In this document: positions 1-1,035 of the stretch, piece by piece | Layout: each line of letters begins with the position of its first letter | Position numbering within the stretch: position 1 is the first letter of the stretch | Assembly: GCF_003334335.1 (NCBI RefSeq) | Contig: NZ_QOWQ01000127.1 | Direction: 5' to 3' (one strand) | Origin: Escherichia coli | GTDB taxonomy: Bacteria > Pseudomonadota > Gammaproteobacteria > Enterobacterales > Enterobacteriaceae | Length of the DNA: 1,035 nucleotides | The notes under the pieces: model-generated | Told to the model about the DNA's origin: nothing | Seen by the model: the letters and a program-made list of their open reading frames with translations, nothing else | Databases searched by the model: none | Position numbers and translations under genes: made by a program

Positions 1-119
1 TTACAGAAAAAATACCGCTCACCGCCCTGTACCGTCAGGTCGATTTCCCAGAGCACCACCCGCGGTGACTGCTCTGATTTAACCGACTCGTTCAGACTTT
101 CTTCGTGAATATCCTGCAT
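1..119 (-). CDS. L: Minor tail protein L (lambda gpL family), N-terminal 39 codons only. Partial: continues past the window start. ATG at 119..117.
   Basis: Seen in sequence: reverse complement of 1..119 translates from ATG as MQDIHEESLNESVKSEQSPRVVLWEIDLTVQGGERYFFC with no stop. This matches the N-terminus of lambda gpL as I recall it (MQDI...VVLWEIDLT...GGERYFFCNEQNEKG...). The start shares one nucleotide with the M stop (TGATG), and an AGGTGG SD-like motif lies 7 nt upstream. Confidence 0.88.
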   Translation of the reverse strand, partial: MQDIHEESLNESVKSEQSPRVVLWEIDLTVQGGERYFFC

Positions 120-448
120 CAGTTCACCACCTGCTTAAACTCCGCGCTGAACTCAACGCGCAACATCCCGACCCGCGCAGACCACCCGGCACAGGTCACC
201 TTTATCTGCCGGTATGCATAGGGTGGCTTCCACAAAAATGCCTTCCAGCCACCGTGCTCTGCCAGGAACGCTTCCAGATGCCGGGCCTCCTCCCGGGTCA
301 CGGAAAGCGTCACCCTGTATGTTTTCAGGTCAGCATTCAGCCCTGCCGCCATACGCTGTGAGTACCCGTCACCAAAACGCACTTCACGCACCGATGGCTG
401 CGAGTTCACCTCCATATCCGGTTTCACTTTCCAGCGAAAGGTTTTCAT
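119..448 (-). CDS. M: Minor tail protein M (lambda gpM family; tail tip assembly), complete, 109 aa. ATG at 448..446, stop TGA at 121..119.
   Basis: Seen in sequence: ORF of 109 aa, MKTFRWKVKPDMEVNSQPSVREVRFGDGYSQR...KVTCAGWSARVGMLRVEFSAEFKQVVN. From memory, lambda gpM is also 109 aa with near-identical N-terminal (MKTFRWKVKP), central (VRFGDGYSQR, EEHGGWK) and C-terminal (RQIKVTCA...MLRVEFSAEF.QVVN) blocks. A GGGGAG Shine-Dalgarno-like motif sits 6 nt upstream of the ATG. Confidence 0.93.
   Translation of the reverse strand: MKTFRWKVKPDMEVNSQPSVREVRFGDGYSQRMAAGLNADLKTYRVTLSVTREEARHLEAFLAEHGGWKAFLWKPPYAYRQIKVTCAGWSARVGMLRVEFSAEFKQVVN
127..132 (-). promoter_or_regulatory. Shine-Dalgarno-like ribosome binding site for L (AGGTGG on the minus strand), 7 nt upstream of the L start codon and embedded in the 3' end of the M coding sequence.
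   Basis: Seen in sequence: minus-strand reading ...cAGGTGGtgaactgATG. Function is inferred. Confidence 0.5.
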
Positions 449-1035
449 CGCCCGCTCCCCGATAACAGACCGCCATCACGCAACTGCAGCCGGAGCTCAT
501 CCTGCGCACCTTTACGGGCCATCTCATACACCGCTTTCATCAGCTGCGGCCCGGCCTGTCCGTTGATGCCGTCGTTCTGAATCACCACGTGATTGTTCTG
601 ATTAAAATTAATGCCTTCGGCCCGCCGCATCTGCGCCGGACTTCCGGCAGCACCCACATACCCCCCTTCCGCATAGCCCCGCATCAGGCGGTACAGGTTC
701 CCGACACCAATCCGGCTGGTTGCCTCCTTCGTGAAGACAAACTCCCCGCGGTGGACAATCCCCGCTGGCTCATATTTGCCACCGGTTCCCGTAAATCCCC
801 CGGTCGCGAAATGGAAGTTCGCCGCCGCAGCCTGAATGGCCGTCCCCGTGGAAGCGGATGCGCCACCACCGAAAGCACCACCAATGGCGCTGCCGATACG
901 CCCGACAATCCCCACCATCGCCTGCTTCAGAAAAATCTCTGTCAGCATGGAGAGCACGGAACGGGTGAAACCACGCCAGTTCTGTTCGCTGCCGGTCAGC
1001 ATCGCTGCCATATTCTGTGCAATACCGTCAAAGGT
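445..1035 (-). CDS. H: Tail tape measure protein, C-terminal portion (lambda gpH-like). Partial: the reading frame stays open upstream of the first in-window Met to the window edge at 1035 (TFDGIAQN precedes MAAMLTG...), so the true start lies beyond the window. Stop codon TGA at 447..445.
   Basis: Seen in sequence: long minus-strand ORF (track 445..1011, 188 aa from first Met) that my own translation extends without a stop to 1035. It ends ...LRLQLRDGGLLSGSGR* and its stop overlaps the start of a recognisable gpM homolog by 4 nt (ATGA). Position immediately upstream of M and L, plus the Gly/Ala-rich hydrophobic C-terminal region, fit lambdoid tape measure proteins. Identity is by synteny and recalled similarity, not by a search. 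Confidence 0.85.
   Translation of the reverse strand, partial: TFDGIAQNMAAMLTGSEQNWRGFTRSVLSMLTEIFLKQAMVGIVGRIGSAIGGAFGGGASASTGTAIQAAAANFHFATGGFTGTGGKYEPAGIVHRGEFVFTKEATSRIGVGNLYRLMRGYAEGGYVGAAGSPAQMRRAEGINFNQNNHVVIQNDGINGQAGPQLMKAVYEMARKGAQDELRLQLRDGGLLSGSGR
455..460 (-). promoter_or_regulatory. Shine-Dalgarno-like ribosome binding site for M (GGGGAG on the minus strand), 6 nt upstream of the M start codon and embedded in the 3' end of the H coding sequence.
   Basis: Seen in sequence: minus-strand reading ...tcGGGGAGcgggcgATGA. Purine-rich, SD-like motif at appropriate spacing; function is inferred. Confidence 0.5.
778..957 (-). other. Gly/Ala-rich hydrophobic segment within the tape measure C-terminal region (about 60 aa: VLSMLTEIFLKQAMVGIVGRIGSAIGGAFGGGASASTGTAIQAAAANFHFATGGFTGTGG), with small-residue spacing resembling glycine-zipper / GxxxG motifs.
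   Basis: Seen in the translated sequence: a run dominated by G, A, I, V, L, F, S and T with very few charged residues, including G-x-x-G-x-x-G-x-x-x-GG-x-x-GGG. A membrane-interacting or channel-forming role is inference; no prediction tool was run. Confidence 0.45.

Follow-up and report, generated by a model that had tools for sequence, protein, structure and literature searches.

Does the extreme C-terminus of a lambda-type tape measure protein (TMP) hold the site at which the protein is processed, does it act in injection, and do its differences from lambda reflect the host? These questions were raised by a 1,035-nucleotide stretch of Escherichia coli DNA (the window, i.e. the whole stretch that was analyzed), in which the initial annotation had placed the end of a TMP at positions 445-780. 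The window was resolved into three reading frames, all on the minus strand:

448..1035, minus strand: 3' end of the tape measure gene (ortholog of lambda H), its last 196 codons, corresponding to gpH 658-853 (open frame, BLASTP, TIGR01541, PF09718 and PDB 8iyk chain H)
119..448, minus strand: gene M (distal tail protein), 109 codons plus stop (ORF, identity to lambda M, PHROG)
1..119, minus strand: gene L (tail tip protein), first 39 codons (translation MQDIHEESLNE..., tblastn)

The minus-strand frame 1035..448 was open throughout its 196 codons, its translation ended in ...RDGGLLSGSGR, and the stop codon followed at 447-445. BLASTP paired this fragment with lambda gpH 658-853 at 83% identity and with zero gaps (E = 2e-91), and a search of PDB chains returned 8iyk chain H (E = 5e-98), so that the resemblance to lambda, as judged from these alignments, is far above chance. 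Moreover the TIGR01541 profile (tape_meas_lam_C) scored 191 bits (E = 3e-56, profile positions 177-332 of 332), above its curated cutoff of 104.75 bits, and Pfam placed PF09718 (Tape_meas_lam_C) on fragment residues 1-44 (E = 5e-8). On profile evidence, the fragment is classified as the C-terminal domain of a lambda-family TMP (TIGR01541 / PF09718), as the initial annotation had proposed. The peptide that it quoted (KYEPAGIVHRGEFVFTKEA...RDGGLLSGSGR) is fragment residues 87-196, a stretch of 110 residues (KYEPAG...GSGR; window 777..448, minus strand) hereafter called the flagged stretch. The interval 445-780 was essentially right, being longer by the stop codon and a further Gly codon, but the minus strand had been omitted. 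In the pairwise alignment with lambda gpH that had been proposed as a check, the flagged stretch paired gap-free with gpH 744-853.

The neighbouring genes were equally lambda-like in arrangement. The M product was 80% identical to lambda M over 109/109 residues (PHROG assignment: minor tail protein), and the start of L was 71.8% identical to lambda L residues 1-39 (tblastn), an L annotation also being present in the closest records. The gene order H-M-L is that of lambda, as are the overlaps of the M start ATG with the H stop codon (ATGA) and of the L start ATG with the M stop codon (TGATG). All three reading frames were intact, a G6 run included, with the coupled stop/start overlaps kept. A 99.6% identical copy was located in the complete lambdoid late operon of a complete prophage, where the TMP (868 aa; lambda gpH, 853 aa) is preceded by G and T. 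The flagged region was 98.9% identical in PhiR12-series phage records, whose listed host is E. coli K-12 or C. Matches to the window occurred in 3668 of 5426 complete E. coli genomes, at a median of 2 and a maximum of 13 places per genome. No Rfam family was found on either strand of the window, and promoter and terminator scans of both strands gave nothing above chance. The lambdoid tail gene junction in the window is a very common one, and the copy seen here is intact and routine. A literature search by name for the PhiR12 phage records found nothing; from their naming, they are probably part of the PhiR temperate-phage panel that PMC13190303 attributes to Brenes & Laub 2025.

Within the tape measure fragment, the following segments and junction were delimited:

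880..1035, minus strand: helical segment, fragment 1-52, gpH 658-709 (AF2 helices, Kyte-Doolittle hydropathy, Pfam Tape_meas_lam_C)
802..882, minus strand: Gly/Ala/Ser/Thr-rich flexible stretch, fragment 52-78, gpH 709-735 (composition, pLDDT, indels, mass estimate)
655..801, minus strand: core mini-domain, fragment G79-V127, gpH 736-784, GGFTGTGGKYEPAGIVHRGEFVFTKEATSRIGVGNLYRLMRGYAEGGYV (conservation, pN/pS, AF2)
661..671, minus strand: mosaic junction relative to lambda, breakpoint near window 671, gpH residue 779 (maximum chi-square)
556..672, minus strand: variable disordered linker, fragment 122-160, gpH 779-817 (variable columns, pN/pS, pLDDT)
448..555, minus strand: C-terminal helix plus tail, fragment 161-196, gpH 818-853 (alignment to chain 9e7m_Ha, AF2)

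In the most upstream segment, AF2 predicted helices at fragment 2-15 and 17-52 (block-mean pLDDT 55-83). The hydrophobic segment that the initial annotation had recognized there exists, but its hydrophobicity is marginal, with a highest Kyte-Doolittle mean over 19 residues of 1.48 (fragment 27-45), whereas a transmembrane segment is called above about 1.6 and without internal charges. E and K occur within the stretch, as does, in this window, an R at the position of lambda Ser703 within the weakly hydrophobic helix. By this measure, no transmembrane segment adjoins the flagged stretch. For lambda, a transmembrane prediction at gpH 691-712 was rated 'much less confident' (PMC12617516).

In lambda, gpH becomes H* by losing a C-terminal piece, H and H* sharing their N-termini; the removed piece (gpHC, about gpH residues 690-853) is of ~14 kDa and begins in a glycine-rich region (PMC12617516). 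The statement of the initial annotation that the cleavage takes off a C-terminal portion was therefore borne out. By mass calculation, a C-terminal fragment of 14 kDa calls for a cut near gpH 715-720 (window ~847-864), and one spanning 744-853 would have a mass of 11.7 kDa. The ~14 kDa, on which this placement of the cut ahead of the flagged stretch depends, is a mass derived from SDS-PAGE. The most probable location of the H to H* cut is the flexible, Gly/Ala-rich stretch (about window 802-882). Several properties distinguish this stretch: i) 74% of its residues (fragment 52-78) are G, A, S or T; ii) its AF2 pLDDT is below 50 and it is predicted to be disordered; iii) nowhere else do lambdoid homologs differ in length (+1 and -5 residues); iv) it is heavily gapped in the alignment of distant homologs. 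Since the flagged residues are colinear with gpH 744-853, they would lie inside the released fragment gpHC, and with the cut estimated at gpH 715-720 they probably form most of that fragment, the scissile bond probably being elsewhere. The idea that the flagged stretch is the processed part thus probably holds for its location within gpHC, and probably not for the cut itself. We infer both the cleavage of H in this phage and the position of the cut. As a possible marker of the fragment N-terminus, stand-alone genes with the core module only were sought, and no reliable case emerged: the contig with P0031 at its centre is a perfect palindrome and an artefact, and P0098 and P0150 lie on 2.5-kb and 0.75-kb contigs whose upstream sequence is uninformative.

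Downstream of the flexible stretch lies the core mini-domain, 49 residues that include the pattern GG[FY]TGxGGK[YF]EPAG[IV]VHxGE[FY]V. Thirteen of its columns (G80, T82, G83, G92, V94, H95, E98, V100, G110, L114, G120, G124 and G125) were invariant in 38 sequences, all of which except lambda are 23-51% identical to the window; the invariant His and Glu are H751 and E754 in lambda numbering. Its portion gpH 744-778 was 100% identical between window and lambda, only 1 of the 35 columns was variable in lambdoids, and pN/pS was 0.001 at a pS of 0.36 (60 unique DNA sequences). The mini-domain is under extreme purifying selection. AF2 modelled it as a beta+alpha unit (pLDDT 83-87). The core was matched in 4809 tape measure cluster representatives at E <= 1e-3, at a median of 110 residues from the C-terminus; among the best 150 matches, it lay ~110 residues from the C-terminus in 88/88 long proteins (>= 550 aa) and was present 2-4 times per protein in 14.

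Structural searches around the core were negative. Foldseek matched the AF2 model to nothing in the PDB (best E = 7), a comparison for which the mini-domain is too small and the whole-chain model of low confidence (pTM 0.27). Of the TMPs in the PDB, a profile search for the core returned lambda only, and there the core is not modelled; the lambda cryo-EM map contains no resolvable gpH ~690-817 (PMC12617516). Neither Pfam nor NCBIfam recorded a peptidase or lysozyme domain in the fragment. The core (gpH 736-784) may be an autonomous functional TMP module, either directing or catalysing the H to H* cleavage or active on the envelope in the periplasm after the tip opens, although we regard this as unlikely.

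The two remaining segments were less constrained. In the linker, 18 of 39 columns were variable, 24 of 39 residues equalled lambda, pN/pS was 0.23 within the lambdoid set and 0.50 relative to lambda, and AF2 pLDDT fell below 50 at fragment 139-159. The C-terminal segment aligned to the 32-residue modelled chain 9e7m_Ha (E = 3e-8) and was predicted by AF2 to be helical at fragment 163-186 (pLDDT 75-82); 24 of the 36 residues of helix plus tail equalled lambda, and the hydrophobic positions of the helix differed by conservative changes (L>M, I>L, M>L, F>L). In lambda, gpH 818-849 was resolved bound to gpI 134-222, forming a trimeric coiled coil that gpI grips in the tail tip (PMC12617516). The C-terminal helix would be the counterpart of this gpI-bound segment, and its binding to gpI is predicted from the alignment.

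The differences of the fragment from lambda were examined for selection and ancestry. No diversifying selection was detected: in the three sub-segments pN/pS was 0.001, 0.23 and 0.26 in the family of 60 unique DNA sequences and 0.00, 0.50 and 0.35 relative to lambda, i.e. below 1 in every segment. The last 75 residues of the fragment were only ~64% identical to lambda (48/75), and divergence started abruptly at residue 779 and ran on through M and L. The maximum chi-square of 33.9 at this breakpoint was reached in 0 of 500 permutations; identity to lambda was 88.2% to its left and 72.5% to its right, and pS rose across it from 0.38 to 0.54-0.70. The G6 homopolymer adjoins the breakpoint (C6 on the plus strand, 661-666), and in PhiR12_2_star a one-base deletion in this run splits H. 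Because the block of H tail, M and L is of other ancestry than lambda's, the differences are best read as phage mosaicism under purifying selection, without sign of host adaptation. H tail type tracked the adjacent M (Spearman rho = 0.64) more closely than L (0.21) or I (0.12). The idea that H and I share a tightly co-evolving interface was rejected, as H tail type was associated neither with whole gpI nor with gpI 134-223. Since H tail and gpI did not co-vary across recombinants, the putative anchor interface would use conserved residues or tolerate mixing.

Taken as a whole, the best explanation is that the flagged stretch is a gpHC-type anchor and plug end, cut upstream and differing from lambda by mosaicism, and we hold it to be highly probable. 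It builds on the homology, colinearity, segment structure, selection pattern and breakpoint observed here, while the anchor and plug role is carried over from lambda, where a plug and opening model of the tail tip has been proposed (PMC11101478). The stretch would be the last 110 residues of a lambda-family TMP, orthologous to gpH 744-853. At the start of tail assembly, three copies of its amphipathic C-terminal helix would wind into a coiled coil that the gpI plug clasps within the cone of the tail tip, which would tie the tape measure to the tip complex (J-I-L-M). gpHC would be separated from gpH* late in tail assembly, and the gpI-clasped helix would keep the tube shut until the tip opens on receptor binding. 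After opening, the fragment would move away or enter the periplasm, so that gpH* and the DNA could exit.

The initial annotation had pointed elsewhere, towards a stretch that might hold the H to H* site, act in host interaction or injection and owe its divergence to host adaptation. Such a reading draws on the membership of the region in the processed C-terminal part of gpH (PMC12617516), on the TMP being the sole phage protein robustly labelled by TurboID-ManZ during injection, the labelled part not being mapped (PMC13190303), and on the last 75 residues being the part of the fragment most divergent from lambda. However, it is highly unlikely in light of the following: i) by the mass estimate, the cut falls before the stretch, near residues 715-720; ii) the trans-envelope channel role in injection is attributed to gpH*, the N-terminal ~80% (PMC12617516), while gpHC and gpI plug the tube and have to be displaced before ejection (PMC12617516, PMC11101478), which speaks against the flagged stretch as the injection part; iii) ManYZ independence is determined by gpH A304V and by the residues 300-400 variant region of PhiR68.2 (PMC13190303), so that none of the published ManYZ bypass or dependence determinants (~300-400) falls in the region, the window beginning at residue 658; iv) no segment has a pN/pS of 1 or more, the stretch does not vary at all where it is best conserved, and the divergence coincides with a recombination breakpoint that reaches through M and L. 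The proposal that variation here reflects host adaptation found no support. That the gene is a relic of a defective, non-expressed prophage, the region having no current function in this genome, is quite unlikely as well. E. coli genomes very commonly carry lambdoid tail remnants, frameshifts hit the same region in the relatives L002/PhiR12_2_star and L058, and a 1-kb window leaves the rest of the prophage out of view; yet the intact frames and overlaps, the strong purifying selection in the family, the near-identical copy within a complete late operon and the close matches in the PhiR12-series records with a listed E. coli host all argue against decay.

A sharper version of the processing claim would put the cut exactly at Gly-Gly/Lys (gpH 743/744, window 777/778), making the flagged stretch precisely gpHC, perhaps through gpK (JAB + NlpC/P60). 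JAB enzymes cleave after Gly-Gly. A GG-K stands immediately before the invariant motif, with G85 at least 90% conserved in the 38-sequence alignment, and lambda-type clusters encode gpK homologs (Prok-JAB, NLPC_P60) shortly after M and L. gpK is moreover a predicted processing peptidase, though for gpI (PMC1779556), the gpI homolog of the F-pyocin loses an N-terminal part (bioRxiv 10.64898/2026.02.24.707460), and no protease has been assigned to gpH cleavage (PMC12617516). Against this, the 744-853 fragment has 11.7 kDa and not ~14 kDa, the 2-4 motif copies found in some of the best matches are a poor fit to a unique processing site, and a literature search found no gpK-gpH link. Distant TMPs with the module adjoin an NlpC/P60-only gene or have no recorded peptidase downstream. 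We give this exact cut only a small chance. gpK as an obligatory partner of the module was also rejected, on three distant TMP contexts (one with an NlpC/P60-only gene, two without a recorded downstream peptidase) that weigh little given the incompleteness of Pfam records. The anchor and plug end cut upstream of the flagged stretch thus stays our preferred reading.

The case is an ordinary one and already known, as the biology named in the initial annotation is largely described in recent lambda structure papers. Its by-product is a sharper four-segment map of the tape measure C-terminus: an indel-tolerant flexible stretch (the probable site of the cut), a constrained mini-domain, a linker free to vary and a putative tip-anchoring helix. 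H751 and E754, together with the segment boundaries, are concrete targets for asking where and by what gpH is cut and which role gpHC plays.

Cell-wall hydrolases embedded in the TMP are known from mycobacteriophage TM4, as from T5 pb2C. Such a hydrolase was considered for the fragment and rejected, as no corresponding domain was found in Pfam or NCBIfam and the Foldseek search of the PDB was null. In the account of phage T5 given in PMC12617516, pb2 is likewise cleaved near its C-terminus inside the assembled tail (to pb2* and pb2C), and the pb2C trimer is kept in the tip on the hub/plug protein, with a proposed periplasmic release on opening; pb2C, of 92 residues, is credited there with cell-wall degradation, whereas the fragment has no Pfam hydrolase domain. 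The T5 pb2 chain was absent from our sequence and profile search matches among PDB chains. Lambda virions carry no such cell-wall hydrolase, and no enzymatic activity has been tied to gpH (PMC12617516).

The F-type pyocin, with PA0636 and the plug PA0640 (PDB 25VF), has a lambda-type tail tip, in which the gpI homolog surrounds a coiled coil made of the last 33 TMP residues, recruits the TMP and keeps the tip locked (bioRxiv 10.64898/2026.02.24.707460). In profile alignment, PA0636 shares with the fragment the upstream Tape_meas_lam_C helical repeats and the ...PGGL... tail. On the other hand, this alignment skips the invariant GG-x-TG...VH-x-GE core, and no TMP cleavage has been reported for the pyocin. 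Distant members of the TIGR01541 / PF09718 family include some with 2-4 core copies and some for which the records show neither a gpK nor a gpI homolog after the TMP; the family otherwise resembles the fragment, which scores above the curated cutoff, in placing the core ~110 residues from the C-terminus.

The closest known system is the lambda gpH C-terminus itself (PDB 8IYK/8IYL/8K35, 9E7M). Unlike lambda, the window carries the last 75 residues, M and L of another mosaic lineage and an Arg in place of Ser703, and its near-identical homolog is longer than lambda gpH (868 vs 853 aa). Like lambda, it shows a gap-free colinear alignment at 83% identity, the H-M-L order with its stop/start overlaps, and a predicted C-terminal helix that matches the gpI-bound segment 818-849.

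All genes of the window lie on the minus strand.

Genes of the window
1035..448 (stop codon 447-445), minus: 3' end of the tape measure gene, an open frame of 196 codons ending ...RDGGLLSGSGR
448..122 (stop codon 121-119), minus: middle ORF (M), 109 codons, starting inside the tape measure stop (ATGA)
119 to beyond the window, minus: third ORF (L), an open frame starting in a TGATG overlap

A megablast search matched the window to 224 phage records, from lambdoid and Stx-converting phages, with the annotations tape measure protein H, tail tip protein M and tail tip protein L. At the protein level, the 196-residue fragment aligned without gaps to residues 658-853 of gpH, the lambda tape measure protein (83% identity, E = 2e-91), and the middle ORF to lambda gpM (80% identity); moreover the fragment scored 191 bits against TIGR01541 (tape_meas_lam_C; cutoff 104.75) and matched Pfam PF09718. 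Given the gap-free alignment and the frame coordinates, the stretch at 445-780 (minus strand) singled out by the initial annotation is real and matches gpH 744-853, with the stop codon and a further Gly codon added. It encodes the C-terminal module of a tape measure protein of the lambda type, a feature of an already known kind in a very common gene: among 5426 complete E. coli genomes, 3668 matched the locus. No record was fully identical, and 13 reached at least 99% identity. One 99.6% copy sits inside a complete lambdoid late operon adjoining potB that extends from terminase as far as J and the tail fiber; its tape measure protein, of 868 aa, is intact.

To describe its anatomy, we compared 80 related IMG/VR loci plus lambda (48 unique protein and 60 unique DNA sequences) and predicted the structure of the fragment with AF2 (fragment residue 1 is gpH 658).

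Segments of the flagged stretch, with pN/pS within the family
777..673, minus: gpH 744-778; 1 of 35 columns variable; pN/pS 0.001 (pS 0.36); part of a predicted beta+alpha unit (fragment 80-120, pLDDT 83-87)
672..556, minus: gpH 779-817; 18 of 39 columns variable; pN/pS 0.23; predicted mostly disordered (fragment 126-159)
555..448, minus: gpH 818-853; 16 of 36 columns variable; pN/pS 0.26; predicted helix (fragment 163-186, pLDDT 75-82)

The segment gpH 744-778 is thus under extreme purifying selection. When 1.84 billion cluster representatives were searched exhaustively with HMMER, 4809 matched the module at E <= 1e-3. Among the best 150 of these, all 88 long proteins (at least 550 aa) carried a G-x-[VIL]-H-x-x-E-x-[VIL] core, at a median of 110 residues from the C-terminus (5th-95th percentile 99-128). 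In an alignment of 38 sequences, all except lambda only 23-51% identical to the window, columns G80, T82, G83, G92, V94, H95, E98, V100, G110, L114, G120, G124 and G125 were invariant, which delimits the core to gpH 736-784 (window 655-801). Moreover the core behaves as a repeatable module: 14 of the best 150 matches (P0035, P0056, P0028, P0038 and 10 others) held two to four copies of [FYW]TGxG...PAG[IV]VHxGE[FY]V in one tape measure protein, with four copies spaced 54-58 residues apart in P0035. An apparent stand-alone module gene of 138 aa (P0031) proved false, as it came from an assembly artefact: its contig (ENA ERZ27336805 NODE_310, L089) is perfectly palindromic, matching its reverse complement with an identity of 1.000, and the tail genes form mirror images on the two sides of the centre. 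In the PDB the core occurs only in lambda gpH, within the stretch of about residues 690-817 that could not be resolved in lambda (PMC12617516), and a fold search returned no match.

The initial annotation stated that cleavage of gpH to its processed form gpH* takes off a C-terminal portion. This was correct: gpH and gpH* share identical N-termini in the 2025 Ur-lambda structure paper, so the removed piece, named gpHC (about residues 690-853), is C-terminal (PMC12617516). According to computed fragment masses, a C-terminal piece of 14 kDa would place the cut at about gpH 715-720 (fragment 58-63, window 847-864). Around gpH 709-735, Gly, Ala, Ser and Thr make up 74% of residues, disorder is predicted (pLDDT <50, AF2) and the alignment of distant homologs has many gaps. 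Among the 80 lambdoid homologs, length differed only in the GGA-x-GGGASAS stretch (window ~865-885, gpH ~709-716), by +1 residue in three loci and -5 residues in one (L013, L021, L052, L036), a pattern that fits a flexible spacer. Based on the gel-derived mass, the Gly/Ala-rich composition, the predicted disorder and the indels, the cut most probably lies at window ~802-882, within the window and upstream of the flagged stretch. A cut at the conserved GG-K junction (743/744) before the core by the JAB enzyme gpK has a low probability: such a junction would suit a JAB enzyme and gpK homologs (JAB + NlpC/P60) are encoded just downstream of M and L, but the resulting 744-853 piece is only 11.7 kDa instead of 14 kDa, distant tape measure proteins with the module either lie beside a gene with NlpC/P60 alone or lack any recorded downstream peptidase, and the core motif can be repeated within one protein. 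The processing target that Iyer et al. predicted for gpK is gpI (PMC1779556), and our literature search found no paper linking gpK to gpH. With the cut most probably upstream, the proposal that the flagged stretch is the processed part holds in that it very probably makes up most of the released fragment; it is probably not the cleavage site itself.

One distant locus (L087, GCA_900113925.1 FORD01000097.1) has a far simpler tail-tip module than lambda's, in which a module-bearing tape measure protein (P0073, 831 aa) is followed only by two unannotated genes of ~300 aa and then a holin-lysozyme cassette; no homolog of gpM, L, K or I is on record there.

Host adaptation had been offered for the variation relative to lambda, and the data gave it no support. 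pN/pS was below 1 in all segments, both within the family and against lambda (linker 0.50, tail 0.35 against lambda). At gpH residue 779 (window ~671, minus), DNA identity to lambda dropped from 88.2% upstream to 72.5% downstream (maximum chi-square 33.9, reached in 0 of 500 permutations), and synonymous divergence, 0.38 before this breakpoint, was higher after it (H tail 0.61, M 0.54, L 0.70); therefore the last 75 H codons have the same separate origin as M and L, in a block running from window ~671 through M (448..122) and L (119..1). This is classic lambdoid mosaicism. The invariant motif ends exactly where the junction lies and could act as an anchor for recombination. Across loci, lambda-likeness of the H tail correlated with that of the adjacent M (rho 0.64) and of L (0.21) and showed no correlation with K or I, and one H tail type was combined with gpI proteins whose C-terminal domain had 77-96% identity to that of lambda; the pattern is one of physical linkage, not of a specific co-adapting pair. 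Moreover, the known determinants for use of the inner-membrane ManYZ lie elsewhere (A304V in the generalist lambda mutant and, in PhiR68.2, a variant region spanning residues 300-400; PMC13190303). Thus the flagged stretch is not a host-adaptive determinant.

Among phage records, the flagged region was 98.9% identical in the PhiR12 series (listed host E. coli K-12 or E. coli C), which by its naming we infer to belong to the PhiR temperate-phage panel that PMC13190303 credits to Brenes & Laub 2025. The closest record, PhiR12_2_star (PV340551, L002; 99.5%), has lost one base in a G6 run (window 661-666; C6 on the plus strand, G6 in the gene). H is thereby broken after ...GYAEGG into two CDS annotations, with a separate ORF of 61 aa taking the last ~70 residues. 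The deletion could be a homopolymer sequencing error, or a real variant in which the tip-anchoring helix would be parted from the remainder of H. The sibling PhiR12_2 has only 96.8% identity in this region, which means that the star phage differs by recombination as well. In another locus (L058, IMGVR_UViG_2718218305_000005), a frameshift in the last 8 codons of H yields a 216-residue tail reading through into M, which points to a prophage in decay or to an error in sequencing.

On both strands, the window had no Rfam match at E <= 1 and no promoter-like site in our scan, its one terminator-like hairpin (749-767, plus strand, antisense to H; shuffle expectation 0.9) is most likely due to chance, and plus-strand ORFs within the flagged stretch (21-34 codons) were without support.

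The suggestion of an injection-related role was not supported, as the trans-envelope channel is formed by gpH* and not by gpHC (PMC12617516). The segment upstream of the flagged stretch is only marginally hydrophobic (hydropathy maximum 1.48), agreeing with the "much less confident" transmembrane prediction for lambda (PMC12617516). At window 898-900 (fragment residue 46), in the middle of this helix, Arg replaces lambda Ser703 (GIVGRIGSA versus GIVGSIGSA); both residues are common among homologs. This argues against a membrane-spanning segment. By analogy with lambda, the flagged stretch very probably serves as tip anchor and plug. The lambda tail-tip structure resolves gpH 818-849, in three copies and bound to gpI 134-222 (PMC12617516). 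In the LamB complex the gpH C-terminal coiled coil rests on the plug formed by gpI, and this plug has to collapse to let gpH and the DNA out (PMC11101478). The same clasp is found in an F-pyocin with a lambda-type tip, where the last 33 residues of the tape measure protein are held by the gpI homolog (bioRxiv 10.64898/2026.02.24.707460).
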